A DNA stretch of 48,184 bases from Vicinamibacterales bacterium (GCA_035700625.1 DASSOM010000190.1:1-48184); one strand, 5' to 3'; counted from the stretch's first letter, positions 2,915 to 48,184 are shown. Notes: generated by a model from the letters alone, not told the origin. Made by a program: numbers and translations.

Positions 2915-4144
2915 TCAGATTACATGAACCAACAGGCCGTCGCGCAGCTTGGGCTCGAACCACGTCGACTTCGGCGGCATGATGCCTCCCTCGTCGGCGA
3001 TCGCGATCAGATCGCCAATCGTCACCGGGAACATCGAGAACGCGACGGCGGCGCGTCCCTCGTCGACGGCCTGCTCGAGCGCGGCGGTGCCGCGGGCGCC
3101 GCCGACGAAATCGATCCGCTTGTCCGTCCGGACGTCGCCGATCGCGAGCAGCGGTTCGAGCACGTGCTGCTGCAGCCGCGCAACGTCGAGCGCGGCGGCA
3201 CGCGAGCCGTCCACCGGCTTCGCGGACGACAGATCGACGACATGCCAGGCGCCGGCGAGATACATCGACACCTGACCGCGTGACGGCGGCTGCGACGGGC
3301 CGGCCGACACGGGAAACCGCTCGCGCAGCGCGGCCAGGAATGCCTCGGGCGTCCGGCCCGCCAGATCCTTCACCAGCCGGTTGTACGGGAGGATCTGCAT
3401 CTGATTGTCCGGGAACGCCACGGCGATGAACGTATCCACCTCGCCCGCGCCGCCCGGCACCGACGACCGCTGCTTCAACTCCGCGCGGGCGCGCGCCGCG
3501 CTCGCGGCGCGGTGATGCCCGTCCGCGATGTACAGCGCCGGCACGCGCGCGAACGCCTGGACGAGTTTGCGCGTCGCCGCCGCGTCCGCCCGCCAGACGG
3601 TGTGACGGATGCCGTCCTCCGCCGTGAACGCATAAAGAGGCCGGCCGGCCGCGACCTCCTGCGCGATCGCGTCGATGTCGCGAACCGCGCGATAGGTCAG
3701 AAATACGACGCCCGTCTGCGCGCGCGTTTCGATGATGTGCCGCGTGCGATCGTCCTCCTTGTCGCGCCGCGTCCGCTCGTGCTTCTTGATCGCGTCGCGC
3801 TCGTACTCGTCGAGCGAAAAGCACGCGGCCACGCCTGTCTGCTCGTGCTCCCCCATCCGCAGCCGGTACAGATAGATCGACGGTTCGTCGTCCGTAATCA
3901 GCGGCGCGCGCCGCGTCAGCGTGTCGAGATTCTCGCGCGCCTTCGCGTACACCGCCGGCGCATACGGATCCGTCTCCGGCGGCAGATCGATTTCCGATCG
4001 GGTGACATGAAGGAAGCTGAGAGGATTGCCGCCGGCGATCTGGCGCGCTTCGTCGGCGCTGACGACGTCGTAGGGGACCGAGGAGACGGCCGACGCCTGG
4101 TCCGCCGCCGGCCGCAAGGCGCGGAACGGGTGGAGCGTGGACAT
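2915..4144 (-). CDS. DUF1015 (COG4198) family protein
   Basis: 409-aa ORF beginning MSTLHPFRALRPAADQASAVSSVPYDVVS, with later FLHVTRSEIDLP and IADGHHR. I recognise these as the DUF1015 signature. It is co-directional with serA, 27 nt upstream of it. Confidence 0.8.
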   Translation of the reverse strand: MSTLHPFRALRPAADQASAVSSVPYDVVSADEARQIAGGNPLSFLHVTRSEIDLPPETDPYAPAVYAKARENLDTLTRRAPLITDDEPSIYLYRLRMGEHEQTGVAACFSLDEYERDAIKKHERTRRDKEDDRTRHIIETRAQTGVVFLTYRAVRDIDAIAQEVAAGRPLYAFTAEDGIRHTVWRADAAATRKLVQAFARVPALYIADGHHRAASAARARAELKQRSSVPGGAGEVDTFIAVAFPDNQMQILPYNRLVKDLAGRTPEAFLAALRERFPVSAGPSQPPSRGQVSMYLAGAWHVVDLSSAKPVDGSRAAALDVARLQQHVLEPLLAIGDVRTDKRIDFVGGARGTAALEQAVDEGRAAVAFSMFPVTIGDLIAIADEGGIMPPKSTWFEPKLRDGLLVHVI

Positions 4145-4165
4145 CCGGTTATTCTATGCCGCCGG

Positions 4166-4343
4166 ATGTCAGGGCTAAAGCCCTGACCCACACAGGCGCA
4201 CCATGTCAGGGCTAAAGCCCTGACCCACGCAGGCGCACCATGTCAGGGCTACAGCCCTGACCCACACAGCACGCGAGGAACTGCGGTCAGCCCTGACACA
4301 GGGAGTGCAATGAGAAATGTGGGTCAGCCCTTTATGGGCTGAC
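4166..4343. repeat. REP-like hairpin array: three 37-nt tandem units plus two further hairpins
   Basis: Units start at 4166, 4203 and 4240 (ATGTCAGGGCTAAAGCCCTGACCCACACAGGCGCACC). Each carries the stem GTCAGGGC/GCCCTGAC. Further hairpins are GTCAG-CC-CTGAC at 4286-4297 and GTCAGCCC-TTTAT-GGGCTGAC at 4323-4343. The last one sits 3 nt past the M23 stop codon, so it may act as a terminator. Confidence 0.9.
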
Positions 4344-4346
4344 TGT

Positions 4347-5621
4347 CTAGTGCTGGATCGCCTTCACTGCATCGGGGCGGCCGGTGGTGGTGTCTTCGGC
4401 CAGCAGCGTCGGCGGCAGCTTCTTCAGGATCGCATCCCGCTCGGTCTTGAAATCCGCGAGCAGGACGGACGGAATCGGATCGCCGGGCGGCATGCGCCGG
4501 TGCTCCACGAGGGGATTGACGAACACGCCGTTCTTCTTCAGCCGGTAGTCGAGATGCGGGCCGGTCGCCGCGCCGGTCGATCCGACGTAACCGATCACCT
4601 GTCCCTGATCGACGCGCACGCCGGGGTGAATCCCTCTGGCGTAGCGCGACAGGTGCAGGTAGTACGTCTCGTAACCTTTCGCGTGGCGAATCCGGACGAG
4701 ATTGCCGTTCGCCCCCTTGTAGTGCGCGTAAATCACGACACCGCTCGCCGCGGCGACGACCGGCGATCCGGTAGGCGCGCCGTAGTCGATGCCAAGGTGC
4801 GCGCGATAGGTGCGATAGACGGGATGCAGCCGGTGACGCGAGAAGCCGGACGTGATCCGCGGCGTGAACTTCAGCGGCGTCCGCAGGAAGAACCGCTTCA
4901 GCGATCGGCCGTCCGCGTCGTAATACCCCGACTTCCCCGTCTTCGGATTCGTCCAGCGGAAGGCTTCGTGCGTGTCGCCGTCGACGCGCATCGACGCGCC
5001 GAGGATCGCGCCATACCCGGAGAACTGTCCGTCGTGGCTCGTCTTTTCGAACAGCACGCGGAACTCGTCGCCCAGCTGCAGGTCGCTGTCGAAGTCGATT
5101 TGTCCGCCGAAGATCTCCGCGAGCGCGAGCGCGAGCTGGACGTTCTCGCCCGTTTCATCGATCGCCGCGATGAGCGACGGATGGTCGTCGTCGACGTGCG
5201 CGTCGATGGAGGTGACCTCCACCTGTTTTTCGTACGGCAGCACCTCGGCCTCGAGCGTGTCCGGAGCCTGCCCCTCGCGATGGACGATGCGGAGGAAGCG
5301 ATCGGCGTCGATCTGATATTCGAACTCACGGAGCAGGCCGTCGACGGAGCGAACGAGCTTGTACGGGCGATCCGCCCGCAGGTCGCGCGGGTTGAACACG
5401 GCGCGCGCGGCATCGACCGCGGCGATCACGAGATTCGTCTGCAGATGATTGTCGCGCAGCAGGCCATCGAGCGTCGCGCGCGCCGGCACGCGGGCTTCGA
5501 TGGTTTCGATCTCGGGAATCAGCCGGACGTCGGGGTGTCGGTACGGCGCGTCGGGCGGAGGACTCGCGCAGGCGGCCACGGCAAGCGCGGTGAGAATCGC
5601 CGGTATCGCTCTCGCCATCAT
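4347..5621 (-). CDS. M23 family metallopeptidase (LytM/MepM-like), probable lipoprotein
   Basis: Track ORF 4347..5804. Start moved to ATG 5621 (MMARAIPAILTALAVAACASPP, which has a signal peptide and lipobox-like AAC). The upstream 61 codons lie in the repeat array. M23 motifs present: HLGIDYGAPTGSPV and GSTGAATGPHLDYRL. Confidence 0.9.
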   Translation of the reverse strand: MMARAIPAILTALAVAACASPPPDAPYRHPDVRLIPEIETIEARVPARATLDGLLRDNHLQTNLVIAAVDAARAVFNPRDLRADRPYKLVRSVDGLLREFEYQIDADRFLRIVHREGQAPDTLEAEVLPYEKQVEVTSIDAHVDDDHPSLIAAIDETGENVQLALALAEIFGGQIDFDSDLQLGDEFRVLFEKTSHDGQFSGYGAILGASMRVDGDTHEAFRWTNPKTGKSGYYDADGRSLKRFFLRTPLKFTPRITSGFSRHRLHPVYRTYRAHLGIDYGAPTGSPVVAAASGVVIYAHYKGANGNLVRIRHAKGYETYYLHLSRYARGIHPGVRVDQGQVIGYVGSTGAATGPHLDYRLKKNGVFVNPLVEHRRMPPGDPIPSVLLADFKTERDAILKKLPPTLLAEDTTTGRPDAVKAIQH

Positions 5622-30915: not shown

Positions 30916-31081
<166 letters not shown>

Positions 31082-32800: not shown

Positions 32801-34390
32801 CTAGACGATCTCGAACGCCTCGATTTCGCCGTGGCGGCCGCGGAGCGACACCGCGCCCAGAGGGCGCGTCTCGACGGGGCGCGCGAGCCGCTCGAGCGTC
32901 GCGCGCGAGATGACGATCTGACCGGGGCGCGCGACAGACGACTCCAGCCGTGAGGCGATGTTCACCACGTCGCCGAGGACGGTGAACTCGCGGCGGCGCG
33001 GCGACCCGATGTCGCCGGTCAGCGCGCGCCCGCTGTTGATCGCGATCCGGACTTCGAGCGGACGCGGCTGGCTGCGGTTCATCTCCGCGAGCGAGCGGCG
33101 CATGGCGACCGCCGCCTGCACGGCGCGGTCGGCGTGATCCCGCTGGGCGAACGGCGCCCCGAAGACGGCCAGGATCGCGTCGCCGATGAACTTGTCGAGC
33201 GTGCCCTCCAGCTCGAAGATCTCGTCCGCCATGCGCGTGAAGTGCTGGTTCAGCAGCTGCGCGACGTCCACAGCGGACATCCCCTCGCACATCGTCGTGA
33301 ACGACACGAGGTCGCAGAACATCACCGTGACGTCGCGCTCCTGCGCGAGAAACGGCGCGTCGATCCCGGAACCTCCCTGCAGAATCCGGTTGACGACCCC
33401 CGGCGAGTGATAGCGCTGCAGCCGCTCGCGGCGTCGCGTCTCCTGCAGCAGCTGCTCCGACGTCCGCGCCTGTTCGATCGCCACCGCGGCGTAGTTGCAC
33501 AACGCGGTGAACACTTCCAGATCGTTCGGCACGAACTTCTTCGATCGCGGGTTGTCGGCGTAGAGCACGCCGATCACTTCGTTCCGGTTCCACAACGGCG
33601 CGCACACGAACGACCGGACGTTCAGCGCCTGGATGCTGCCGGCCGTGTCGAGGCGCGGATCGTACAGCGCGTCGGCGGCGAGCATCGCGACCCGCTCGCG
33701 CATGACGTGGTTGATCACCGTCCGGCTGAGCGTCGTCTGCTCCGGCGCCGACCCGTCGCGGTTGCGCAGCACGCGCGCCGTCAGCGCCTCGTGCGCCGAA
33801 TCGCGCAGCAGCAGGAACACGCGCTCCGCCGGCACGACGTCGAACACGAGATCGACGACGCGCGTCAGCACCTGCGTGAGCGGCTGGACGGTGACGAGCG
33901 TCTTGCCGATCTCCGTCAGCAGCCGGAGCAGGCGCGACTGCCGGCGCTCGCGGCCGCTGCGGCGATTCCGGCTCGCGAACGGCCGATCCGTCTTCCTCCG
34001 ATCCGACCCGCTGCGGCGCTCCTTCGCCGGGGACGCGGCCACGACGTCGCCGGTGGGTGCCTCGTCGGCGTCGCTGTCGATCTTGCGGACGAGCGTCCCC
34101 GAGTCCTCGAGGAGCTGATGCTCCTCCGAGAGCAGCGTCCCGGCGTCGAGCCGCTGCTCGAGCGCGAGCGTGATCTGGCCGCACTGGATGACGTCCCCCG
34201 CCGTCAGCGCAACGTCCCGCGCCACCGGCTGGCCATTGAGAAGGGTTCCGTAGCGGCTGCCCGCGTCCGAGAGCACGCAGCGGCCGTCCGCAAGCGACAG
34301 CCTCGCGTGCTGGCGCGAGATGCCGGGCGCGTTCAGGACGATGTCGCAGGACGGGGCGCGGCCGATGAGCGTGGTGCCCGGCGCGAGCAC
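32801..34390 (-). CDS. FHA - GAF - class III adenylate/guanylate cyclase
   Basis: 529-aa ORF from GTG 34390. The FHA domain is TLIGRAPSCDIVLNAPGISRQHARL...GSRYGTLLNGQPV. The GAF region includes VFLLLRD...SFVCAPLWNRNEVIGVLYADN. The cyclase domain is VTVMFCDLVSFT...DKFIGDAILAVFGAP...INSGRALTGDIGS...FTVLGDVVNIASRLES. The true 5' end is uncertain: FHA-like sequence continues for 17 codons upstream, right up to the kinase stop codon (see findings). Confidence 0.88.
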   Translation of the reverse strand: MLAPGTTLIGRAPSCDIVLNAPGISRQHARLSLADGRCVLSDAGSRYGTLLNGQPVARDVALTAGDVIQCGQITLALEQRLDAGTLLSEEHQLLEDSGTLVRKIDSDADEAPTGDVVAASPAKERRSGSDRRKTDRPFASRNRRSGRERRQSRLLRLLTEIGKTLVTVQPLTQVLTRVVDLVFDVVPAERVFLLLRDSAHEALTARVLRNRDGSAPEQTTLSRTVINHVMRERVAMLAADALYDPRLDTAGSIQALNVRSFVCAPLWNRNEVIGVLYADNPRSKKFVPNDLEVFTALCNYAAVAIEQARTSEQLLQETRRRERLQRYHSPGVVNRILQGGSGIDAPFLAQERDVTVMFCDLVSFTTMCEGMSAVDVAQLLNQHFTRMADEIFELEGTLDKFIGDAILAVFGAPFAQRDHADRAVQAAVAMRRSLAEMNRSQPRPLEVRIAINSGRALTGDIGSPRRREFTVLGDVVNIASRLESSVARPGQIVISRATLERLARPVETRPLGAVSLRGRHGEIEAFEIV

Positions 34391-34441: not shown

Positions 34442-36103
<1,662 letters not shown>

Positions 36104-36148
36104 TTCGGGAATCCGGATGGACGCGACAGTATAGCAGTCACACGAACC

Positions 36149-37129
36149 ATGCCCCTGCTGCTCCGTGAAACCGATGTCCGCGCCGTGCTGCCGATGACCG
36201 ATCTCATCGCGGAGATGGAAGTCGCGCTCGCGCAGTTCTCTGCCGGGGCCGTGCAGCAGCCGCTGCGCACCGTGCTGGAAGTCGGCAGCGAACACGCGTT
36301 CTTCGGCGTGATGCCGGCGGCGTTGCGCGATCCCGACGCGGTCGGGACGAAGCTGGTCACGGTCTTTCACTCGAACGCGAGCCGCGGGCTGCCGTCGCAC
36401 CTGGCGACGATCGTGCTGTTCGATCCGCACACGGGTGCGCTCGTCGCCATCCTCGACGGCCGCTACATCACGGAAGCGCGGACGGCCGCGGTGTCGGCGG
36501 TCTCGACGAAGCATCTCGCGCGCGAAGGCGCGCGGTCGCTGGCGATTCTCGGATCCGGCGTCCAGGCGCGCAGCCATCTGGAAGCGCTCGGCTGCGTGCG
36601 CACGTTCGAGGAGGTGCGCGTGTGGAGCCCGACGCGCGCGCACGCGGACGCCTTCGCCCGCGATCATCAGGCGGGAACGCCCGCGCGCATCAGCGTCGCG
36701 GCGTCACCCGAAGCCGCGGTCGCGGGCGCGGACGTCGTCGCGCTCGTAACGGCGTCGCGCGAACCGGTGGTGCGTGACGAATGGATCGCGCCGGGCGCCC
36801 ACATCTGCGCGGTGGGAGCGTGCCGTCCGGATCAGCGCGAGGTGGACACCGCGCTCGCCGTCCGCGCGCGCGTGTTCGTCGATTCGCGCGTCGCCGCGCT
36901 GGCGGAAGCGGGGGACCTCGTCATCCCCATGAAGGAGGGAGCCATCGGCCCCTCACATATCGTCGGCGAGCTCGGCGACGTCGTCGCAGGCCGGGTTCAG
37001 GGACGCCTGGGCGATACCGACGTGACGATGTTCGAGTCGCTGGGGATGGCGGTGGAGGATGTGTCGGCCGCGCGCCTTGCCTGGGAACGGGCGCTGGAGC
37101 GCGGCCTGGGGACCAAGATCACGCTGTAG
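36149..37129 (+). CDS. Ornithine cyclodeaminase / mu-crystallin family protein
   Basis: Only the last 326 codons of track ORF 35624..37129 are real. The start is ATG 36149 (MPLLLRETDVRAVLPM). Family blocks are GVMPAAL...GTKLVTVF, ITEARTAAVSAVSTKHLAR, LAILGSGVQA and HICAVGA. Confidence 0.88.
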   Translation: MPLLLRETDVRAVLPMTDLIAEMEVALAQFSAGAVQQPLRTVLEVGSEHAFFGVMPAALRDPDAVGTKLVTVFHSNASRGLPSHLATIVLFDPHTGALVAILDGRYITEARTAAVSAVSTKHLAREGARSLAILGSGVQARSHLEALGCVRTFEEVRVWSPTRAHADAFARDHQAGTPARISVAASPEAAVAGADVVALVTASREPVVRDEWIAPGAHICAVGACRPDQREVDTALAVRARVFVDSRVAALAEAGDLVIPMKEGAIGPSHIVGELGDVVAGRVQGRLGDTDVTMFESLGMAVEDVSAARLAWERALERGLGTKITL

Positions 37130-37599: not shown

Positions 37600-38769
37600 A
37601 TGCGCGCGACGGCCCTGGCGTTGGCCGCCCTGCTGACCGCCGCACCCGTCCCGGATCTCCAGCCCTCCCAGGCGGCCCGTCTGCAGGCGTCGCTCCTGGC
37701 CTACAACCTGGATCACGACGAGGCGCTGCGGCGATTCCGCGAGCTGGTCGCGGCGAATCCGGACGACTCGGCCGCGCACCGGGCGCTTGCCTCGACGTTG
37801 TGGATGAACCTGCTCTTCCGTCGCGGCGCCGTGACGGTCGACTCGTACCTGGGCGGCTTCACGAAGCCGAAGGTGGACCTCGGGCAGCCGCCGCCGGAGG
37901 TCGCCGCCGAGTTCCGGCGCGAGATCACGCGCGCGATCGGGCTGGCGCAGGGGCGCGTCGACCGCAACCCGCGCGACGCCGAGGCACGCTACGAACTGGG
38001 GGCGGCGCTCGGCGTGGAGGCGTCGTATACGGCCACCATCGAAGGGCGGCTCCTTGCCGGCTTCAAGGCCGCCCGCCGCGCCTTCGACGAGCAGGAAGCC
38101 GTGCTGCGGCTCGATCCCGCGCGCGCCGACGCGGCGCTGATCGTCGGCACCTACCGCTACGTGGTCTCGACCCTGTCGTTCCCGATGCGCTGGATGGCGT
38201 ACGTCGCCGGCTTTGGGGGAGGCAAGGATCGCGGCATCCGCCTGATCGAGGAGGCGGCCGCGCGAGGCACCGAACTGAGAACCGACGCGCGGTTCGCCCT
38301 CGTATTGATCTACAACCGGGAAAGGCGGTACGACGAGGCTCTGGGCGTGCTTCGCGAGCTCGAGCGGACGCTGCCGCGGAACCGTCTGGTCAGGCTCGAA
38401 TCGGGCGCCACCGCGCTGCGCGCCGGTCGCGCGGCGGATGCGGAACGGATGCTGTCGGCCGGGTTCGCAATGTTCCAGCGGGACGATCGGCCGAAAATAC
38501 CTGGCGAGGCCGCGCTGTGGCAGTACAAGCTCGGCGCCGCCCGTGCCCGGCTCGGCCGGACGGATGCGGCGGCCGCGGACCTGAACGCAGCGCTCACGCA
38601 GAAGGACGCGCCGGCGTGGATTCTCGGCCGGACGCACGTCGAGCTCGCGAGGCTGGCCGCCGGCCGCGGCGACCGCGAGGCGGCGCGCCGCGAAGCGCGT
38701 CAGGCCGCGGTGCTGTGCGAGCAGGGAAACGACCCTGCGTGCGTCGACGCCGCGAAACGGATACGCTGA
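37600..38769 (+). CDS. Secreted all-helical TPR-like protein (possibly DUF3808/TTC39-like)
   Basis: 389-aa ORF with a signal-like N-terminus (MRATALALAALLTAAP). The block IVGTYRYVVSTLSFPMRWMAYVAGFGGGKDRGIRLIEEAA reminds me of the Iml2/TTC39 family. That family call is tentative. Confidence 0.65.
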   Translation: MRATALALAALLTAAPVPDLQPSQAARLQASLLAYNLDHDEALRRFRELVAANPDDSAAHRALASTLWMNLLFRRGAVTVDSYLGGFTKPKVDLGQPPPEVAAEFRREITRAIGLAQGRVDRNPRDAEARYELGAALGVEASYTATIEGRLLAGFKAARRAFDEQEAVLRLDPARADAALIVGTYRYVVSTLSFPMRWMAYVAGFGGGKDRGIRLIEEAAARGTELRTDARFALVLIYNRERRYDEALGVLRELERTLPRNRLVRLESGATALRAGRAADAERMLSAGFAMFQRDDRPKIPGEAALWQYKLGAARARLGRTDAAAADLNAALTQKDAPAWILGRTHVELARLAAGRGDREAARREARQAAVLCEQGNDPACVDAAKRIR

Positions 38770-38773
38770 CGCG

Positions 38774-39268
38774 ATGGCTAAGGTCAAAACGTGGGTCTGG
38801 GTCGTCGTCGGCGTGTTCGCCGTCTGCGTCCTGGGTGTGGTCGCCCTGGCGGCTGCCGGCATCTGGTTCGCGCGGTCGCACATCGACATCCAAAGCACGA
38901 CGCCGACGGCGGCGACCGACGACTTCCAGCGTGTGCGCGAGCGGTTCGCCGGCCAGCAGCCGCTCATCGAACTCGACGAGCGCGGCCACGTCGTCCGTGC
39001 GCATACCGATCGGCCGATGAGCGATCAGCGTCCGGAGTCGCTTCACGTGATGGCGTTCGATCCGGACGATGGCCGGATCGTGCGGTTGACGATCCCGTTC
39101 TGGCTGCTGCGGCTGAAGATGCGCGGCACGCGGATCGATGTCGGCGGCGACAACATCGACCTCGAGGACTTGAAGATGACGGTCGAAGACCTCGAGCGGT
39201 ACGGACCCACGCTCATCGTCGATCACAAGGGGGAGGATGGGGAGCATGTCCTCGTCTGGTCGCAGTAG
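38774..39268 (+). CDS. Membrane-anchored hypothetical protein (164 aa)
   Basis: The N-terminal TM segment is WVWVVVGVFAVCVLGVVALAAAGIW, followed by a soluble domain. The gene starts 4 nt after the upstream stop, so it is probably co-transcribed. I recognise no family. Confidence 0.6.
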   Translation: MAKVKTWVWVVVGVFAVCVLGVVALAAAGIWFARSHIDIQSTTPTAATDDFQRVRERFAGQQPLIELDERGHVVRAHTDRPMSDQRPESLHVMAFDPDDGRIVRLTIPFWLLRLKMRGTRIDVGGDNIDLEDLKMTVEDLERYGPTLIVDHKGEDGEHVLVWSQ

Positions 39269-39270
39269 CT

Positions 39271-39408
39271 GAATCCCGAATCCCTGATCACGAATCCCTC
39301 ATCCCTGATCGTCGAATCCCGGATCCCTATCCCGGATCCCTGATCGCGGATCCCCAATCCCGCATCCCGAATCTCGCATCCCGCATCCCGCATCCCGCGC
39401 CCCGGATC
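39271..39408 (-). repeat. Dispersed heptad-built element, copy B (ATCCC orientation)
   Basis: Reads gaatccc gaatccc tgatcac gaatccc tcatccc tgatcgtc gaatccc ggatccc ... gcatccc x3. It starts 2 nt after the stop of the 38774..39268 gene. Its reverse complement aligns to copies A and D. Confidence 0.9.
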
Positions 39409-39550
39409 GTGTCCTCGTCTGGTTTCAGCCGCTGTCCACGCGAACGAGCGTTGCCGTTTCCGGTTGAGCGAATTGCTCCGAAAAGTCAGCAATCGCGGCC
39501 GGAACTCATCTTGCTCGTGGGGCAGTGCAGCCGCGCCGAGGAGAGTTCCC

Positions 39551-39949
39551 ATGCGACACCTGTTCACGGCCGCCGCGTCGGCGGTGTTTACCATCGCGCT
39601 GGCCGCGCCGGCGGCGGCGCAGTTCAACGGCTGGATTCCGTCCGCCCGCCCGGGCTACGAGGATCAGTACCGGTCCTCGTACTACCAGGCCCGGCGCCTC
39701 GCGTACGACAACGGCTTCCGCGAGGGACTGGACGAAGGCCGCAAGGCCGCCCGCAAGCGTGATGCCTTCGAGCCGCGGCGTGAGAAGGACTACCGCAAGG
39801 CGACGAAGGGTTATCGCCGCGATTACGGCAACAAGGATCGGTACCGCGACGTGTTCCGTGCGGGGTTCCTCGATGGGTATCGGCAAGGGTACGGCCGCTT
39901 TAGCGATCGGCGGGAGTTTCGACGGTACCGTGGCTGGCCGAATCGCTGA
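39551..39949 (+). CDS. Small secreted, highly basic Arg/Tyr/Asp-rich protein (132 aa), unknown function
   Basis: Track ORF 39464..39949. Start moved to ATG 39551 (GAGGAGAG upstream; MRHLFTAAASAVFTIALAAPAAAQ is a signal peptide). The mature part has internally repeated GFREGLDEG / GFLDGYRQGYG motifs. Confidence 0.6.
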   Translation: MRHLFTAAASAVFTIALAAPAAAQFNGWIPSARPGYEDQYRSSYYQARRLAYDNGFREGLDEGRKAARKRDAFEPRREKDYRKATKGYRRDYGNKDRYRDVFRAGFLDGYRQGYGRFSDRREFRRYRGWPNR

Positions 39950-40154
39950 TCACGAATCCCTAGTCCCTGATCCATGGATCCCTGATCCGTATCCCGCATC
40001 GCTGATCGCGCATCACTGATCCCGCATCAGACTCGGGATAGAGAGGATCGGAGATTCGGGATCCGCGATCAGGGATCCGGGATCAGCGATCCGGGATACG
40101 GATCAGGGATTCGACGATGAGGGATGAGGGATTCGTGATCGGGGATTCGGGATT
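39945..40154. repeat. Copies C (ATCCC orientation, 39945-40028) and D (GGGAT orientation, 40034-40154) of the heptad element, forming an imperfect palindrome of about 210 bp
   Basis: Copy C begins at the stop codon of the plus-strand gene. Copy D ends 6 nt before the stop codon of the minus-strand MscS gene. The reverse complement of D (aatcccgaatccccgatcacgaatccctcatccctcatcgtcgaatccc...) nearly matches copy B. The pair fills the whole convergent intergenic gap and could act as a bidirectional terminator. Confidence 0.88.
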
Positions 40155-40160
40155 AAAGAT

Positions 40161-41603
40161 TCAGATCCGGAGGCGAAGGAACCGCTTCATCCTCGCCACG
40201 AGACTATTCGTCTCGAGTGCAACCCCACTCCCCGCCGCCGCGCGGACCTGGTCGAGCTCCGCGCGGCGCGCAGCCGCCGCGACGCCAATCCGCTCGACGG
40301 CGGCCGCGTCGCCCGCGCCGAGCTCCCGGAACAAGTCGGCCCCGAGTTCGATGACGGCGACGTCGCCGCGAGCCACCACCGTCGCGGACCGCGGCTCCCC
40401 CGTCAACAGCGACATCTCCCCGAAATAGCCGCCGGCGTCGATCTCGGCCACCTGGCGCCCATCCGGTTCGACGACCACCGCCACCTTGCCGCTGCACAGC
40501 ACGAACATCGACTCGCCGGGTTCTCCCTGGCGCACGAGCGCTTCACCGTTGCCGAACGTCCGCATGGTGGTCGCCGCGGCAATCGCGGCGCGCTGCTCCG
40601 TCGTCAAACCCGCGAACAGGTCGATGCGTGCGAGCGCCGCTTCGCGCTCGAGGCGTCTGGTGTTGTCGTCCGGCTCCGGCCACTCGCGCGAATAGCCGAC
40701 CTCGATCGGCCACGGAATCTCGATGTTGTGGCGCGCGAACACGTAGTAGATTGCCGTGCGCACCTCGTCGCGCGCCTCGTCGTCGAACTCGTAGTCGGCG
40801 ACCCAGAAGCGCGCTTGATAGTTAATCGCCGACCCGTCGAACGAGAGCAGCAGCGCATCGGGCGCCGGCGACGCCAGGGCGCGCGGCACCTGGCGAATCG
40901 CCTCGAGAATCGCGGCCTTGACCGTGTTGGGCGGCACGAGGTAGCTCGCGCCGACCTCCACCGTCAACCGCGTGGGAATCACCGGCTCCGAGTAGTTGGT
41001 GACCGGTTCCTTCGCGACGAAGTTGTTGGGCAGGATGATGAAGGTGTTCGCGCGCGTGCGCAGCTTCGTCGCGCGCCAGGTCACTTCCGTGACCTGCCCT
41101 TCCAGATCGCCGACGCGGATCCACTGGCCGACGTGGAACGGCTTCTCGCTCTGCAGCGCGAGGCCGGCGAACGCATTGCCGAGCGTGTCCTGGAGCGCGA
41201 AGCCGAGCACCACGGCGCTGACCGCGGACGTCGTGACCAGCTCCTCGCTGAGGAACATCGCCGCCACGAGGACGCCGCCGATGACGAAGGCGTCCTGCAG
41301 GATCGCGGGGAACCGGTCCGGAACGCGGTTCTCGCGCAGCGGGTTGATGACGGTGATGACGACGAGATTGATGAGCGCGGCGGCGAGCGCGAGCGCTTCG
41401 AAGTCGCGGAGGTGCGCTTCCGCCCCCGCGGTGGCCGCGGGACGCAGCAGCACGAACAGGTTGACGGCAATGTAGCCGGCGAGCAGGACGAACGAGAGGC
41501 GCAGCTTGCGCCTCACGAGCCGGTTCGTGCTGATGCTGAAGACGCCGAACGTGACGGCCAGCGCCGTCACGCCCAGCATCAGATGCCCGGGGTAGTGCGG
41601 CAT
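40161..41603 (-). CDS. MscS-family mechanosensitive channel with C-terminal cyclic-nucleotide-binding domain (bCNG-type)
   Basis: 480-aa ORF. After the N-terminal TM helices comes the MscS core, LGNAFAGLALQSEKPFHVGQWIRVGDLEGQVTEVTWRATKLRTRANTFIILPNN. The CNB domain is FAGLTTEQRAAIAAA...GEALVRQGEPGESMFVLCSGKV...GGYFGEMSLLTGEPRSATVVA. Confidence 0.9.
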   Translation of the reverse strand: MPHYPGHLMLGVTALAVTFGVFSISTNRLVRRKLRLSFVLLAGYIAVNLFVLLRPAATAGAEAHLRDFEALALAAALINLVVITVINPLRENRVPDRFPAILQDAFVIGGVLVAAMFLSEELVTTSAVSAVVLGFALQDTLGNAFAGLALQSEKPFHVGQWIRVGDLEGQVTEVTWRATKLRTRANTFIILPNNFVAKEPVTNYSEPVIPTRLTVEVGASYLVPPNTVKAAILEAIRQVPRALASPAPDALLLSFDGSAINYQARFWVADYEFDDEARDEVRTAIYYVFARHNIEIPWPIEVGYSREWPEPDDNTRRLEREAALARIDLFAGLTTEQRAAIAAATTMRTFGNGEALVRQGEPGESMFVLCSGKVAVVVEPDGRQVAEIDAGGYFGEMSLLTGEPRSATVVARGDVAVIELGADLFRELGAGDAAAVERIGVAAAARRAELDQVRAAAGSGVALETNSLVARMKRFLRLRI

Positions 41604-41610
41604 CCGGGGC

Positions 41611-42762
41611 TCAGCCCGCGATCCCTTTCCGGAACGTTTCGAGTTCCGCCGGCGTGATCGTCACCTGAACGGCGTTCTTGTTCGCGCCGCCGGTTGCCAG
41701 CGTGTCCGGGCCGATGGCGCGACCGCCGGCCGACGCCACCGTCTGCGACGACTGCGCCTGCTGTCCGCTCGACAGGCCGAACTTGCCGAGGAGACCACCC
41801 TTCTTCTTCGGCTCCGCGGGTTTTTCCTCTTTTCCATCCGTCTTCTCGGCGGCCGACGAGCCGCCGCCCGCGAGGCCTCGCGATCCGGGCGCGACCGTCG
41901 CGATGTCCGTCACCGGCTTCGCCTCGAACGTGATGTGTTCCTTGTAGCGGGCGGCGACGGTCGCCGTCGCATGCAGCTTCTCCTGCGCGATCAGCTTCGT
42001 GAGCGCGTCGATTCTGGCCTTCGTGTCGGGATGAGAGGCGAACAGCCCGTTCGGCGCGTCGCTGCCCTTGTTGCGATCCGAGAGCAGCGTCAGCGCCTCC
42101 ACCAGCCCGGACGGCGCGTAGCCGACCTGATTCGCGAGCCGCACGCCGACCTTGTCCGATTCCATCTCGTCGCCGCGGTCGAACTGGTTCTCGAGCACCA
42201 TGTGGTACGCCTGCTCGGCGATCCGGCTGACGATCTCGGACGTCAGCGTTCCGGTCCGCGACTGCTCGGCGCCGAGCGACACCACTTTGCTCTTTTGAAT
42301 CGCATGGACGGTGTGCTTCGCGGTGACGTGCGTGATCTCGTGGCCGAGCACACCCGCCAGCTGCGCTTCGTTCTGCATCAGGCCGAGCAGCCCGCGTGTG
42401 ACGTGCACGATGCCGCCGGGCGCGGCGAACGCGTTGACGCCGTCCGTGTCGAGCACGATGAACGTCCAGTTCAGGTTCGGGCGCGAGCTGGCCTGCGCGA
42501 GCACCGTCCCGACGATCGCCACGTACTTCGTGACCTCGGCATCCTGATACACGCCGAAGGTGTCGCGAAGACGGCGGCTGACGTCCTCGCCGATCTTCCG
42601 CTCATCCTGTTCGGAGATGTTGAGGTCCGCGACCTTCTTCGCCGCGTCCTCAGCTTTCTTGGCCTTGCCGAGAATGCCGCTCAGCTGCGCGGACGCTGGT
42701 GCGGCGAGCACGAGCGTCATGACGCACGACAGGACGAACGCCGCTGGAGTCGATCTGGTCAT
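41611..42762 (-). CDS. Secreted M48 family zinc metallopeptidase
   Basis: 383-aa ORF with a signal peptide (VLSCVMTLVLAAPASAQ). The HExxH motif occurs in VLGHEITHV, and NAFAAPGGIVHVTRGLL is also present. The C-terminus is low-complexity and Gly/Lys-rich. The start overlaps the upstream cyclase stop (ATGA). Confidence 0.88.
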   Translation of the reverse strand: MTRSTPAAFVLSCVMTLVLAAPASAQLSGILGKAKKAEDAAKKVADLNISEQDERKIGEDVSRRLRDTFGVYQDAEVTKYVAIVGTVLAQASSRPNLNWTFIVLDTDGVNAFAAPGGIVHVTRGLLGLMQNEAQLAGVLGHEITHVTAKHTVHAIQKSKVVSLGAEQSRTGTLTSEIVSRIAEQAYHMVLENQFDRGDEMESDKVGVRLANQVGYAPSGLVEALTLLSDRNKGSDAPNGLFASHPDTKARIDALTKLIAQEKLHATATVAARYKEHITFEAKPVTDIATVAPGSRGLAGGGSSAAEKTDGKEEKPAEPKKKGGLLGKFGLSSGQQAQSSQTVASAGGRAIGPDTLATGGANKNAVQVTITPAELETFRKGIAG

Positions 42763-44810
42763 AGGGCCTGTTCCTCCCGGCTCTGGATCGGCGACGGCAC
42801 ACGAACCTCGAAAATGGCCACCGGCTTCGTTTTACCCTTCACGACGACGTCGCCGAGGGGCCGGGTGTCGAACGCGCCGGTCAGGCGCGTCCGGGTTGCG
42901 TCGCTAATGATAATGCGGGTCCGGTATTCCTTGTTCAGGGATTCCAGCCGGGACCCGAGGTTCACGTTGTCGCCGATCACCGTGTAGCTCATGATCGACG
43001 AGGACCCGATGTTGCCGGCGATCATGTCCCCCGAGTTCACGCCGATGCCGATATCGAGCCGGGCCTTCCCTTCCGCGGCCCAGCGTGCATTGAGGACGGC
43101 CAGCTCGCCAACCATGTCCACCGCCGTCCGCACCGCGTGCTCGGCGTGGTCCGGATCGTCCACCGGCGCGCCGAACAGCGCCATCACCATGTCGCCGACG
43201 AACTTGTCGACGGTGCCGCCGTGGCGGAAGACGACCTCGACCATCTTCGAGAAGTACTCGTTCAACTGGCTGACGATCTCCTCGGGGTTGCCGCGCTCGG
43301 TCACGCTCGTGAACCCGCGGATATCCGAGAAGAGGACGCTCATGTCGCGCCGCGTGCCGCCGAGCTCGGCCATCTCAGGATGCGCGATCAGCTGCGCGTG
43401 CACGTCCTTCGACACGTACCGGCCGAACAGCCGCGACACGACGCGCTTCTCGCGTCCTTCGACGAAGTACTGATAGGCCGTCCCCGCGAACAGCGCGATC
43501 GCGGCTGCGGCGAGCGGCTGCGCGAGATTCAGCCACAGCCCGCCGCGGAACGCACCGATCGTCAACCACGTCCATCCCCCGGCGATCGCGGCGGCCGACA
43601 CGCCTGCCGCCGCAAAGGGCAGGAACGCCGACAGCAGTCCCACGCCCGCCGCGGCAATCGCGACCGCGGCCACGCGCGACGCGTTCGACGCGGGACGGAT
43701 GAAGCGTCCCGACAGGACGCTGTCGGTCATGCTCGCGTGGAGTTGAATCCCCGGCATCGTCCCGCGCGGCCCGAACGGCGTGGGGAACACGTCCATCAAC
43801 CCGGACGCCGTCAGCCCGACGAAGACGATCTTGTTCTTGAAGACGGCGGGATCCACCAGCGGTTTCTCGCCCGCGAGGATCTGCTGCTCCGAGAACAGCA
43901 GGTGCCGCAGCTCGTACGACGGATACGGGCGCTTGCCGTCCACGAGCGCCGGCGCCCGATAGTTCACCAGCATCGTCCACTGCTGATGCGTCTTCGACGC
44001 GTCGTACGCGCTGCGCACCGTCACCGGCACGAGCGGAATACGGCGGCTCCCCGCGACGATGGCGTCGCCGTCCAGCGTCACGTCGCGCGGCGCGATGCCG
44101 GCAGCACGCAGTGCCACGGCCAGGCCCAGCGACGGCAATGCGTGCTGCCCCTGACGGATGAAGGGCGCCATGCGCCGCGCCGGGCCGTCCGGATCGAGCG
44201 CGAGAAAGTTGTGGCCGAGCCCGGCGGCGGCGTCCGTCAAGGCCGGCACCGGCGGGAGGACGACCGGCCGTTCTTCGATCGCCGGACCGAGGCGATATCC
44301 GGGATCGCGCCAGGCCGGTGCAGACGAGGACTGCGTGCCGTTCGTCACCCCTTCGTTCACGGCGTCCGCGAGCAGGATCACGTTGCCCGATGCCTTCACC
44401 GAATCGGCGAGTGCCTGATCGCTTTCCGCTCCACTGATCGTCTGGCCGTTGAGGTCGTACTGCTGCACGACGTCCGGTTCGGTGAACAGCAGGTCGAGTG
44501 CGACGACGCGCGCGGGGGCGCGCTGAAGATAGTCGAGCAGGATCGAAAAGGCGACGCGCGGCCAGGGCCAGTGACCCAGCACCGGCGCGAGATCGCGAAT
44601 CGTCGTGTCGTTGATCTCGACGAGGACGATGTCCCGGTTGACCGACGCGGGATTGGCGGCGAGGCGAACGCGCCAGTCGTACGCCTTCAGTTCGGCGGTC
44701 TCGAAGGCGCCCGCTGCCGCCAGCAGCAGCACGAGCGCGGCGGTTCCGCCCCCGAGCGCCAGGCCGGCCAGGAGCTTGCGCCCCGCGCGCCGGCGTTCGT
44801 CCCTGGTCAT
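42759..44810 (-). CDS. CHASE2 sensor domain - class III adenylate/guanylate cyclase
   Basis: Track ORF 42759..44945. Start moved to ATG 44810 (MTRDERRRAGRKLLAGLALGG). The CHASE2-like extracytoplasmic region is AYDWRVRL...IVLVEINDTTI...WPWPRVAFSILLDYL...VVALDLLFTEPD. After the TM cluster the cyclase domain is MSVLFSDIRGFTS...DKFVGDMVMALFGAP...VNSGDMIAGNIGS...YTVIGDNVNLGSRLES. Confidence 0.9.
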   Translation of the reverse strand: MTRDERRRAGRKLLAGLALGGGTAALVLLLAAAGAFETAELKAYDWRVRLAANPASVNRDIVLVEINDTTIRDLAPVLGHWPWPRVAFSILLDYLQRAPARVVALDLLFTEPDVVQQYDLNGQTISGAESDQALADSVKASGNVILLADAVNEGVTNGTQSSSAPAWRDPGYRLGPAIEERPVVLPPVPALTDAAAGLGHNFLALDPDGPARRMAPFIRQGQHALPSLGLAVALRAAGIAPRDVTLDGDAIVAGSRRIPLVPVTVRSAYDASKTHQQWTMLVNYRAPALVDGKRPYPSYELRHLLFSEQQILAGEKPLVDPAVFKNKIVFVGLTASGLMDVFPTPFGPRGTMPGIQLHASMTDSVLSGRFIRPASNASRVAAVAIAAAGVGLLSAFLPFAAAGVSAAAIAGGWTWLTIGAFRGGLWLNLAQPLAAAAIALFAGTAYQYFVEGREKRVVSRLFGRYVSKDVHAQLIAHPEMAELGGTRRDMSVLFSDIRGFTSVTERGNPEEIVSQLNEYFSKMVEVVFRHGGTVDKFVGDMVMALFGAPVDDPDHAEHAVRTAVDMVGELAVLNARWAAEGKARLDIGIGVNSGDMIAGNIGSSSIMSYTVIGDNVNLGSRLESLNKEYRTRIIISDATRTRLTGAFDTRPLGDVVVKGKTKPVAIFEVRVPSPIQSREEQAL

Positions 44811-45049
44811 GTGAGCCCACAGGATAGCGCAGGCCGTACATCCAGACAGCGCGCGTCCAGCGGATGTGCTAAGCTCCCCCGCGCGCCTGGGCCCTTCTGG
44901 GTCCGCGAGCCGCTCCCCAGTATGCCCCCCGGCTTGCGTCGGCACGGCGGCATGAGGGCCTGTCCCTCGCCACGCGGCTGTTCCCTCGCCTGCGCCCCGG
45001 CCACACCTCCTTCGAGTTGCCGCGCCTTCTGACAGGCCGTCAGGATCCC

Positions 45050-48000
45050 ATGCCTCCCGATCTGTCGACGAAGCTGGTCTCGCTGGCGCAGCTGATGGCG
45101 TATGCGGCGGAAGCCGACGGACGCGTCACGCCCGAAGAGTTGTCGACGCTCCACGAATTCCTCGGACGCCAGTACTCCGGAACCGCGCGGTCCGAGTTCT
45201 TCGACCTGTTCAGGCAGGCGCTCCGGAACCGTCCGGATATCGAGCGGATCGTCCAGGCGATCCACGAGGGCCTGCCTGACTACCTGGAGCGCCTGGACGT
45301 CTACGCGACGATCCAGACGCTGCTTGCGGCAACCGGGATGACCCCGGAGGAATCGTACGGGCTCGGCAAGGTCGCATCGCTCCTCGACATCGAGCCGGCG
45401 GACGCGGATCTCCTGGCCAACGTCACCGCGCCGGTCCCCGAGTTCCGGTACCCCTCGAACCGCGAGCGGTTGCTGCGCATCGGCGCGGACGTGCCTGACG
45501 GCTTCGCCGCCGCACGGGATCTGCGCGTGACGGCGCTGTCGCTGGCGGGAACCTTCGCCCTGGCGAGCGAACGCGTCGAACTGTTCGTGGACGGCGTCGG
45601 ACATCCGCCGGGAGACATCGTGTTCCTGCGCCCCGGCGATCAGGTGTGGACCTCTGGCACCTCGATCGGATTTGCCGATGTGTCGCGGCTGTTCGACCTG
45701 GCGAAGAAGCGCGTGATCCACGTCTGCCGGCTCGCGGTCGACGGCGCGCGGCTGATCGCCGTCGGGGAGACCGGCGCGTGCGCGTTCGAACTGCGCATCC
45801 AGGACACCGGACTGTTGTTCGTGAGGCGCGATGGGAAGGCGCCCGTGCGGCTGAACGGCGAACCTGTCGACTCCGGCGTGGTTCTTCTGCCGGCTGATGT
45901 GCTGCACTTCGGGTCCGGCGAGGTGCGCGTGTCGCAGATCCTCGACTCGCTCGACCGCGCGGCGTGGCCGCTGACCGAGTCGGCAGAGGCCTCCTTCAAA
46001 TACGTCATCTCCGATCGACCCGGCGTCGCGGCCAGCGTCGTCGCCGACGTCGGCGGACCGGTGTCGATCACCATTGCCGAATCCGGCGACAGCGCGGCCC
46101 CCTTGACCGTCGCCTGCGATGAATGCCAGACGGACGTGCCGGTCAGCCTTGCGGATGCGCCCGTGGTCCCCGGAACGCTCGTGCCGCTCTCGTCGAACGC
46201 GGTGCTTCGCATCGGCCATCACTGGTTCGCGATCGATCCGCACACGCTGAAAGTGGAGTACTCGAAACGCGTCGTCGAGCGGTTCGAGGCGCGCGACGTG
46301 CGCTACCGGTTCCGGAACGCCGTCGGGCTGGACGGCATCAGCCTGACGGCGCGATCCGGCGAGCTGGTGGGCATCATGGGCGGCAGCGGCGCGGGCAAGT
46401 CCACGCTGCTCGGCGTGCTGCTCGGCATCCTGGAGCCCCACGAGGGAGCGGTCCTGCTGAACGGCGAGGACCTGCGCGGCCAGCTGCGCCGCTGCCGCTC
46501 GATCCTCGGCTACGTCCCTCAGGACGACCTGGTCATGGACAGCCTCACCGTCGAGGAGAACCTGCTGTATGCCGGGCGGATTCGCCTCCCGGGTCTGCCC
46601 GACGCGGAGCTTCAGCAGCGAGTCGCGCGCGTCCTCCGCGACATCGGGTTATTCGAGCGAAGGCATCTGCGCGTCGGCAATCCCGTCGAGAAAGTGCTGT
46701 CGGGCGGCCAGCGGAAGCGTCTGAACATCGGGATCGAGCTGCTCGCGGATCCGGAGCTGTTCTTTCTGGACGAACCCACGTCGGGGCTTTCGTCGCAGGA
46801 CTCGACGACCATCATGGGACTGCTGCGGCAGCTGACGCACCGCGGCAAGCTCGTGTTCGTCGTCATTCATCAGCCGAGCTCTGACATCTACAAGATGTTC
46901 GACCAGGTGCTGATCCTCGATACCGGCGGCGTGCTCGTCTGGTACGGGCCGGCGCGCGACGCGGTGGGGCACTTCAAGGCGTTCCTGCCGCACCATCGCG
47001 ATTTCGTCGAGTGTCCGGCGTGCGGCTCCATCAACCCCGAGACCATCCTCAACGCGATCGAGCAGCCCCCGTCGGTGCTGCGGACGCCGGCGGACGCGCC
47101 GACGAGGAAGTTCGATCCGCAGTTCTGGAGGAACGCCTACGTCCTCAGGCAGCGGACAGAGCCGGCCGAGGCGGGGCCGCCGCTGCTGCTGCCGCGGGCG
47201 CCGTCCGCGGGACTCCGCGGCAACGTTCGCGCGCTGCGCGCGTCGATCGCGCGGGCCTTCGTGGATCGCGCCCGGAACCGCACGAACATCGTCATGAGCG
47301 TCGCCGCCCCGTTGTTGCTGGCGCTGGTGATGGCCGCCATGCTGCGCGGCCCCGATGAGCCGTACACCTACTCCGGCAACACCGCGCTCGGGAAGTTCTT
47401 CTTCCTCTCGACGATCGTGTTCGTCTTCTTCGGCTTGATGGGCAGCGTCAACGAAGTGATTCGCGAGGTGGCGCTGATCCGCCGCGAGCGCGTCGCCGGC
47501 TTCAAGCCGAGGCAGTACATCGCCGCCAAGACGGTGGCGTTCCTGCCGTTCGCGCTGCTGCAGGTGGGCATCTACACCGTCATCGCCAGCCTCGTGCTGC
47601 AGTTTCCCTATCGCGCGCCGGGCTACAGCCCCGTGCAGCCGGTCGTACCGTTCCCCTGGTACTTCGCCCTCGTGCTGTTCCTCACCGGGCAGGCCGCGTT
47701 CGCGCTCGGGCTGCTGCTCTCCTCGTGCCTTCGCACCCAGGCCGCGGCGTTCAACTGGATTCCACTCGTCATCGTTCCGCAGATTCTGCTCGGCGGCGTG
47801 TTCGTCCAGTTCTCGGAGATGCCGACGCTGGTGAACCGCGTCGTTCCCGAGTATGCGGAGCTGGCATTTTCGCGGTGGGGCTACGAGGCGCTGCTGGCGG
47901 GCGAAAAGAATTTCAATCCGTCCGATCACTTCAACGCCGACGCGATCCTCGCGCTGCAGGCCTCGCACCTCGCGCGCGGCGAGCGCTTCGACATGAACGC

Positions 48001-48184
48001 GCTCGTCCAGGTGCCGAAGGACCGGTGGCGAGGCGAGCCCGGCATGCGGCTGCCTCCACCGCGCCTGTCGTCGAAGTTGCTGCACGAGACGCTGCTGGAG
48101 CGGCTTCGCGTGTACGACCGCACGGCCGAAGCGGAGATGCTCGAAGACGCCTATCAGCGCGTGGACCGCCGGTCGTACACGCTC
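45050..48184 (+). CDS. Large fusion protein (over 1045 aa, 3' end off the window): TerB-like N-domain, beta-rich FHA-like modules, ABCG-type ATPase, ABC-2 type permease and a C-terminal extension
   Basis: Absent from the ORF track because no stop lies in the window. My plus-strand translation from ATG 45050 is stop-free to 48184 (1045 codons).
- N-terminus: MPPDLSTKLVSLAQLMAYAAEADGRVTPEELSTLHEFL (TerB/DjlA-N-like).
- FHA-like strand pattern: VRLNGEPVDSGVVLLPADVLHFGSGEVRV.
- Walker A: GIMGGSGAGKSTLL (~46378).
- ABC signature: LSGGQRKRLNIG (~46696).
- Walker B: LFFLDEPTSGL.
- ABCG-type motif: VIHQPSSDIY.
- Hydrophobic ABC-2 membrane segments span about 47270-47870. Confidence 0.85.
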   Translation, partial: MPPDLSTKLVSLAQLMAYAAEADGRVTPEELSTLHEFLGRQYSGTARSEFFDLFRQALRNRPDIERIVQAIHEGLPDYLERLDVYATIQTLLAATGMTPEESYGLGKVASLLDIEPADADLLANVTAPVPEFRYPSNRERLLRIGADVPDGFAAARDLRVTALSLAGTFALASERVELFVDGVGHPPGDIVFLRPGDQVWTSGTSIGFADVSRLFDLAKKRVIHVCRLAVDGARLIAVGETGACAFELRIQDTGLLFVRRDGKAPVRLNGEPVDSGVVLLPADVLHFGSGEVRVSQILDSLDRAAWPLTESAEASFKYVISDRPGVAASVVADVGGPVSITIAESGDSAAPLTVACDECQTDVPVSLADAPVVPGTLVPLSSNAVLRIGHHWFAIDPHTLKVEYSKRVVERFEARDVRYRFRNAVGLDGISLTARSGELVGIMGGSGAGKSTLLGVLLGILEPHEGAVLLNGEDLRGQLRRCRSILGYVPQDDLVMDSLTVEENLLYAGRIRLPGLPDAELQQRVARVLRDIGLFERRHLRVGNPVEKVLSGGQRKRLNIGIELLADPELFFLDEPTSGLSSQDSTTIMGLLRQLTHRGKLVFVVIHQPSSDIYKMFDQVLILDTGGVLVWYGPARDAVGHFKAFLPHHRDFVECPACGSINPETILNAIEQPPSVLRTPADAPTRKFDPQFWRNAYVLRQRTEPAEAGPPLLLPRAPSAGLRGNVRALRASIARAFVDRARNRTNIVMSVAAPLLLALVMAAMLRGPDEPYTYSGNTALGKFFFLSTIVFVFFGLMGSVNEVIREVALIRRERVAGFKPRQYIAAKTVAFLPFALLQVGIYTVIASLVLQFPYRAPGYSPVQPVVPFPWYFALVLFLTGQAAFALGLLLSSCLRTQAAAFNWIPLVIVPQILLGGVFVQFSEMPTLVNRVVPEYAELAFSRWGYEALLAGEKNFNPSDHFNADAILALQASHLARGERFDMNALVQVPKDRWRGEPGMRLPPPRLSSKLLHETLLERLRVYDRTAEAEMLEDAYQRVDRRSYTL

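Follow-up and report, generated by a model that had tools for sequence, protein, structure and literature searches.

The window analyzed here is a stretch of 48,184 nt from a Vicinamibacterales bacterium (GCA_035700625.1, DASSOM010000190.1), with a GC content of approximately 68% from end to end. Its minus strand carries three consecutive genes that form the subject of this work: a predicted receptor adenylate cyclase of 683 amino acids (42759-44810, minus strand), which combines a CHASE2 domain with a class III catalytic domain; an exported M48 zinc metalloprotease of 383 amino acids (41611-42762, minus strand), assigned from Pfam Peptidase_M48, PDB matches, and conserved residues; and an MscS-type channel of 480 amino acids with a C-terminal cyclic nucleoside monophosphate (cNMP)-binding domain (40161-41603, minus strand), identified by Pfam, PDB matches, and hydropathy. 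A preliminary description of the locus had reported the close packing of the three genes and their domain content. Direct reading of the sequence bore out the packing: the ATGA at 42759-42762 (minus strand) places the M48 start over the cyclase stop, and the M48 stop (TGA, 41611-41613) is separated by 7 nt (gccccgg) from the channel ATG at 41603. Pfam returned the same domains as described, namely CHASE2-cyclase, M48 with HExxH, and MscS-cNMP. The GC content of the operon matches that of its flanks, and GC at third codon positions was 0.84-0.90 in all three frames, similar to other real genes in the window. An alternative, longer cyclase frame starting from a GTG reaches 44945; the ATG at 44810 was taken as the start because the orthologues measure 636-677 amino acids.

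In the cyclase, Pfam recognized CHASE2 (PF05226; 5e-54, 183.9 bits against a cut-off of 26.3, residues 25-390) and Guanylate_cyc (3e-26). The hydropathy profile showed a transmembrane segment at residues 13-31, the CHASE2 domain of about 350 residues (~32-379), and an Ala/Gly-rich transmembrane cluster (~380-450), probably composed of three helices, followed by the class III catalytic domain (~470-670). In the predicted layout the catalytic domain is cytoplasmic, and the CHASE2 domain, lying between transmembrane segments, hence faces the periplasm. The nearest solved structures of the catalytic domain were Synechocystis Cya2 (2w01), the engineered adenylate cyclase derivative IlaC (6fht), and P. 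aeruginosa CyaB (3r5g). The metal-binding residues D496 and D540 and the transition-state residues N617 and R621 were kept in 78-80 of 80 cyclase sequences, and the specificity pair K536/T610 was present in all 80. At the aligned Lys position the guanylate cyclase Cya2 (2w01) has Glu and 6fht has Lys. A Lys combined with Asp or Thr is the signature of class IIIb adenylate cyclases in the classification of Linder and Schultz, guanylate cyclases having Glu with Cys, Gly, or Ala. All the residues that characterize a class III (IIIb) adenylate cyclase (the metal Asp pair, the Asn and Arg, and the Lys/Thr pair) are therefore present, and the Lys536/Thr610 signature, together with the Glu found at the Lys position of Cya2, leads us to predict cyclic AMP (cAMP) as the product.

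The M48 protein (Pfam PF01435, 2e-30, 106 bits) consists of a signal peptide with an AXA site (...APASA/Q), a BepA-like core (~48-260), a disordered linker rich in Lys, Glu, and Asp (~292-349), and a conserved C-terminal segment (~350-383). Across the alignment the signal peptide ends in a conserved A-x-A/Q, and no lipobox Cys is conserved. The preliminary description had called the protease secreted; export via a Sec signal peptide with an AXA site stood, whereas the predicted destination is the periplasm and not the outside of the cell. The zinc-site residues H141, E142, and H145 (HExxH) and E199 occurred in all 81 M48 sequences, and H244, the counterpart of the regulatory His of BepA (the "His switch"), is likewise conserved, the five residues together being found in 79-81 of 81. 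By sequence and by fold, the PDB matches were 3c37 and BepA (6sar/6ait). The linker preceding the C-terminal tail is variable and charged, and the tail itself carries the conserved motifs KKKGG-L/F, ASAGxR, and TPAELxxF-K/R-KGI. In an AlphaFold2 model, the core and residues 351-383 were confident and residues 292-349 disordered; because a confidently modeled segment follows a disordered one, the model suggests that the tail docks onto the protease core. A fold search with this model retrieved M48 proteases only and returned nothing informative on the tail.

Two assignments to known M48 proteins were considered and rejected. For BepA, no TPR domain was matched, only the protease half aligned, and the score against NF052400 was 98 bits (cut-off 570). 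For LoiP, the score against NF052399 was 70.7 bits (cut-off 365), the signal site is of the AxA-Q type, and there is no conserved Cys. Judged by its sequence, the protein belongs to a dedicated, predicted periplasmic M48 subfamily that is marked by its unique conserved C-terminal tail. In one related locus (L082, 9103-10191, plus strand) the place of the channel is taken by another M48 gene in tandem, a paralogue whose signal-peptide and N-terminal motifs are the same.

The channel contains, from N to C terminus, PF00924 (MS_channel_2nd), PF21082 (MS_channel_3rd), and PF00027 (cNMP_binding, 6e-22). Four N-terminal hydrophobic helices precede the MscS pore-lining helix, after which come the MscS beta and C-terminal domains and then the cyclic-nucleotide-binding (CNB) domain at ~320-445. 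Matches in the PDB divided accordingly, with MscK, MscS, and YnaI covering residues 70-305 and the CNB domains of PKA-R, PKG, and MloK1 covering residues 318-446. The preliminary description had staked its idea of a signaling unit on three things, the presence of nucleotide-contacting residues in the CNB domain, the synteny of the three genes in related genomes, and their joint expression. Concerning the first, the phosphate-binding cassette proved essentially invariant: G395, E396, R405, and A407 were found in 69 of 69 channel orthologues, and position 406 was Ser or Thr in 65 of 69. [quoted passage not shown]

Concerning the second, homologues of the M48 protein at 55-63% identity were plentiful in metagenome-assembled genomes (MAGs) of Acidobacteria/Vicinamibacterales. 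A GTDB scan with the M48 alignment, using one genome per species, gave at least 582 relatives, of which the best 80 loci (M48 identity 38-66%) were surveyed by placing the window proteins with tblastn; except for a few odd bin labels, all were from Acidobacteriota. On four long contigs the order cyclase, M48 (with a 4-nt overlap), MscS-CNB was preserved with differing upstream genes. Of the 75 loci with enough room, 73 had the CHASE2-cyclase directly upstream of M48 and on its strand, and 57 had the channel directly downstream of M48, likewise on that strand; in 7 more the channel was adjacent but convergent, and in 2 more it was found elsewhere in the locus. When the count was restricted to loci flanked by 7 kb or more on either side (n = 46), all 46/46 had the cyclase and 41/46 the channel, compared with 25/46, 22/46, and 18/46 for the next-best neighbors and 0/46 for the upstream gene of the window. 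The gene junctions were also similar among the relatives, a 4-nt NTGA overlap between cyclase and M48 occurring in 62 of 77 related loci and the gaps between M48 and channel being mostly 0-35 nt. The association held in the reverse direction: when the channel in metagenome contigs (48-69% identity) was taken as the starting point, 57 of the 58 loci that offered 600 nt or more had M48 directly upstream, and of the 34 loci offering 2 kb or more, 33 contained both M48 and cyclase. To judge from these junctions and counts, the three genes are translationally coupled here, and the survey shows that they co-occur far more tightly than any neighboring gene. The cyclase-M48 pair is the invariant core; the channel, as third member, is common but can be dispensed with.

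Searching outward with the M48 protein of a Thermoanaerobaculia-labeled MAG led to a sister clade whose three proteins are only 32-61% identical to those of the window; the identities listed by protein were 36-42% for M48, 32-34% for CHASE2, and 32-43% for MscS. Here the genes remained adjacent in altered orders. In three loci (L093, L094, and L095) M48 precedes the cyclase with a gap of 2-10 nt and the channel is convergent; in L096 the cyclase is divergent from M48, which is followed by the channel; and in L097 the cyclase is divergent from M48 and there is no channel. The most remote full-length M48 representatives, retrieved at 31-37% identity from a library of 1.8 billion proteins, still had a class III cyclase immediately upstream.

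In the channel-less locus L097, a gene for an MBL-fold hydrolase (4010-4840, minus strand) that matches the Anti-Pycsar Apyc1 family lies beside the cyclase; it may encode a cyclic-nucleotide phosphodiesterase paired with that cyclase. Apparent gene fusions were also encountered. P0246 (L098, 2081-4969) is a single open reading frame of 962 amino acids in which the CHASE2-cyclase is joined in frame to M48 within the M48 signal peptide, and the channel follows with an 8-nt overlap. Since its sole contig has 3.5x coverage, so that the fusion could be an assembly artefact or real, it was given no weight as evidence. P0288 and P0315, two further candidates for gene fusions, were rejected as frameshift artefacts with Arg-rich nonsense tails.

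The explanation that we consider probable is that the trio constitutes a vertically inherited three-gene cAMP signaling module that belongs to Acidobacteriota (to Vicinamibacterales and to a sister clade resembling Thermoanaerobaculia), with a cyclase under the control of CHASE2 and the protease, and with cAMP gating the channel. CHASE2, together with the periplasmic protease, would control the cyclase, and the cAMP formed would bind the C-terminal domain of the channel and alter its gating. In this way an envelope or periplasmic cue would be converted into a flux of solutes or ions, rapidly, locally, and without transcription, the channel being the usual but not the sole output of the cyclase-protease pair. 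Deletion of CHASE2 renders CyaD1 of S. meliloti constitutively active (PMC5498481), and CHASE2 can therefore be an inhibitory module. Because of this result, and because the M48 protein has the regulatory His of BepA and an apparently docked tail, we find it attractive to suppose, as the detailed mechanism that we favor although a hypothesis with less than even odds, that the protease is kept latent by a BepA-like His switch and by its tail; an envelope cue would activate it, and the inhibition of the cyclase by CHASE2 would be lifted by clipping of the sensor or by making or removing its ligand. We put forward a broader proposal only tentatively, as a possibility that may well not hold: the M48 protein would be the input device of an orphan CHASE2 sensor, stress proteolysis would lead via cAMP to the gating of an MscS-type pore, and CHASE2 receptors in general would monitor the envelope by means of a periplasmic partner dedicated to them (in Proteobacteria one of FecR type, in Acidobacteria a BepA-like protease that is latent). 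If true, this would amount to a complete, transcription-free reflex from periplasm to channel and would provide the first physiological context for bCNG channels.

Several observations weigh against the module as we propose it. Approximately 11% of the loci are without the channel; therefore the cyclase-M48 pair must be regarded as the core, and the cyclase must feed other outputs too. The window itself encodes further cAMP-related genes. The cassette reads RSA in the window channel and RTA in 41 of 69 orthologues, and cAMP and cyclic GMP cannot be told apart from it. Every named record is from Acidobacteriota, a few odd bin labels aside, and the metagenome contigs carry no taxonomy. Published bCNG channels gave E. 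coli no protection against downshock, and their gating by nucleotides is without structural support (PMC13591265). Finally, that the trio is carried on a single transcript is something we infer, and the same applies to an action of M48 on the CHASE2 domain.

Among the alternatives, the one that fares best assigns the cAMP circuit to the cyclase and the channel, and regards the M48 protein as a separate envelope quality-control protease, similar to BepA or LoiP, which would be co-expressed for a shared envelope or osmotic stress and would not regulate the cyclase. In E. coli, the M48 protease LoiP is induced at low osmolarity, and MscS channels have their role under hypo-osmotic stress; a common stress theme is plausible on these grounds. 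The core of the window protein is BepA-like in sequence and fold, sharing with BepA (YfgC) and LoiP (YggG) of E. coli the zinc site formed by HExxH and Glu and the His of the His switch. However, it lacks the TPR domain of BepA and the lipobox of LoiP, scores far below both cut-offs as given above, and has instead a subfamily-specific linker and a conserved 30-residue C-terminal segment that is specific to the subfamily. Moreover, wherever an examined M48 protein of the subfamily had room, it adjoins a cyclase (CHASE2 or class III), even at identities as low as 31% and across changes of gene order; M48 is linked more tightly to the cyclase than to the channel, and its start/stop overlap with the cyclase is conserved. 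We therefore regard an independent housekeeping role of the protease as unlikely.

A second alternative is a Pycsar-like anti-phage system, in which infection would elicit a nucleotide signal and a cNMP-binding membrane effector would kill the cell. The two-part logic of a class III-type cyclase and a membrane effector with a CNB domain is identical, and in PADLOC the PycC model matched the cyclase domain (5e-26) and models for Pycsar effectors matched the CNB domain (6e-15). These matches are at the level of domains only, however, and none was obtained for M48, the additional protease. The cyclase is of receptor type, with an extracytoplasmic sensor domain and a purine (Lys/Thr) signature, the effector is a full MscS channel and not PycTM or PycTIR, and the GC content of the module equals that of its flanks. 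The module is vertically inherited and near-universal in its clade, partly in a conserved chromosomal context across an order, and not patchily distributed in defense islands. A defensive function thus seems highly improbable. We give hardly any credence to passive synteny among close relatives without a functional link. It is true that several downstream genes (for a 164-aa protein, a TPR protein, and an ornithine cyclodeaminase) share the synteny in many Vicinamibacterales. Yet the members of the trio are retained in 41-46 of 46 loci as against at most 25 of 46 for other neighbors, the upstream genes differ, identities of 31-66% exclude near-clonal loci, and, arguing for functional coupling, the adjacency outlasts inversion and reordering (at least four arrangements) and holds from both the M48 and the channel side.

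Around the three genes of the proposed cAMP module, the 239-bp region at 44811-45049 separates the cyclase from a divergent plus-strand TerB-ABC transporter gene and presumably contains the operon promoter. Between the channel stop and the convergent gene at 39464-39949 lies an inverted repeat built of heptamers (GATCCCN) at 39938-40150, with 91-nt arms that are 84% complementary; this 210-bp hairpin may act as a bidirectional terminator. A scan of 39300-45400 detected no sigma-70-like site and no minus-strand terminator, including inside the operon, such a scan being uninformative for Acidobacteria. The lack of such sites inside the operon accords, weakly, with a single transcript, and the conserved overlap of cyclase and M48 also accords with one. 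When k-mers were compared over 69 regions upstream of the cyclase in orthologous loci, no common motif emerged; the sole recurrent 10-mers derived from the 3' end of a tRNA gene in about 9 loci. Among the loci L013-L092, about 9 (L016 being one) have this tRNA gene end (GGTTCGAATCCCCGTACCGG-like) just ahead of the cyclase gene on its upstream side, so that in one subclade the module is situated beside a tRNA gene. In the window, tRNA and Rfam scans gave no match.

The GATCCCN arrays, consisting of the 7-nt repeat and its complement, recur in intergenic positions of the window (30974-31070, 39272-39381, and 39938-40150), the pattern having 14 matches against 0.55 expected. Long inverted repeats with 110-nt arms and 89% complementarity are located on both sides of the small gene 39464-39949. 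The arrays resemble a genome-specific intergenic repeat family and are possibly terminators or a mobile miniature element. The large gene divergent from the operon (45050-48184, plus strand), which continues past the end of the window, specifies a protein in which a TerB domain at the N terminus is fused to an ABC ATPase and an ABC-2 permease, and it is this gene that adjoins the module in none of the 46 full-length related loci. A second cyclase of the window, with FHA, GAF, and class III cyclase domains, is encoded directly 3' of a Ser/Thr protein kinase gene (genes 32801-34390 and 34442-36667, both minus strand). This pairing suggests control of the cyclase through phospho-threonine, and kinase and GAF-cyclase genes are found near the module in L001 and L053 too. 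In the window (37600-39949, plus strand) and in related loci, there are also genes for proteins of 389 (TPR), 164, and 161 amino acids, small exported or TPR proteins with uninformative Pfam results, which accompany the module on its downstream side in 18-25 of 46 loci, a partial co-conservation. In the 161-aa protein a signal peptide is present, and the sequence is repetitive and rich in Arg, Tyr, and Asp.

Each of the parts is of a known kind. In the literature searched, there appears to be no description of the conserved module of three parts or of its dedicated M48 subfamily: full-text searches on CHASE2 with M48, proteases, or mechanosensitive channels gave nothing relevant, in agreement with the preliminary description, which knew of no account of such a module. 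The module bears on two open questions, namely what CHASE2 senses (PMC5192318) and what role bCNG channels play, which has been unclear since 2010 (PMC13591265). It offers a portable test system for both, with a candidate periplasmic partner or activator for CHASE2 and a defined cyclase as nucleotide source for a bCNG channel. It also adds a new and easily recognized M48 subfamily, which could be annotated as "CHASE2-cyclase-associated protease", and suggests a use of cAMP, in the abundant Acidobacteria of soil, for a rapid response at the membrane and not only for transcription.

When compared with known systems, the window channel is built like the bCNG channels: an MscS pore helix and beta domain come first, and the cNMP-binding domain at the C terminus contains a canonical phosphate-binding cassette. 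The bCNG channels described so far are mostly cyanobacterial (Caldwell et al. 2010, Malcolm et al. 2012, as cited in PMC13591265), and a review of September 2026 considers their physiological role poorly explored, reports no structures, and mentions no partner genes (PMC13591265). The window channel differs from them in being genomically tied to one particular cyclase and protease. The bCNG-like genes of Azospirillum and Mesorhizobium examined on proteobacterial replicons had no cyclase or M48 neighbor, and a general link between bCNG channels and cyclases was rejected, since these genes have neither partner. On plasmid AZO_p2 of Azospirillum lipoferum 4B (L007, 6144-13484), the bCNG-like channel gene lies between a gene for a BLUF blue-light sensor and genes for synthesis of the osmoprotectant N-acetylglutaminylglutamine amide (NAGGN), a context that hints at a different, osmotic or light-linked, setting for this channel type.

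The cyclase has the same order of transmembrane segment, CHASE2, transmembrane segments, and class III domain as the CHASE2 receptor adenylate cyclases CyaB of P. aeruginosa and CyaD1, CyaD2, and CyaK of S. meliloti. Its catalytic domain aligns with that of CyaB (3r5g) at 1e-34, and the window cyclase carries the Lys/Thr specificity residues. The output of the P. aeruginosa and S. meliloti enzymes goes to transcription factors (Vfr and Clr), and no protease partner of theirs was found in the literature searched. A general pairing of CHASE2 with M48 was rejected as well: with 36 plasmid or chromid records containing CHASE2 and 40 listed of the 69 containing M48, the genes were more than 1 Mb apart in both of the listed records shared, and the pairing is therefore not general.

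The closest parallel to the cyclase-protease pair was found with FecR. In 3 of 3 proteobacterial plasmid or chromid loci examined, a FecR-domain gene lies immediately upstream of CHASE2, and there is no M48 gene. A FecR-CHASE2 pairing is also present in the Burkholderia "BiofilmReg" operon (PMC5192318), and the signal of CHASE2 domains is called not known in the same paper. Given that proteobacterial CHASE2 proteins pair with a FecR-domain gene, CHASE2 sensors typically have a periplasmic partner, of which the protease with its attached channel is a distinct variant. No FecR domain was found in the genes of the window between 31 and 48 kb or in the Pfam-annotated related loci. In the FecR-CHASE2 operons, as in the module described here, a CHASE2 membrane sensor is encoded beside, and probably co-translated with, an exported periplasmic partner; whereas those operons have a LysM/FecR protein as partner and a histidine kinase or a cyclase as output, here the partner is an M48 protease that is catalytically intact by its residues, and the output includes a predicted second-messenger-gated channel.

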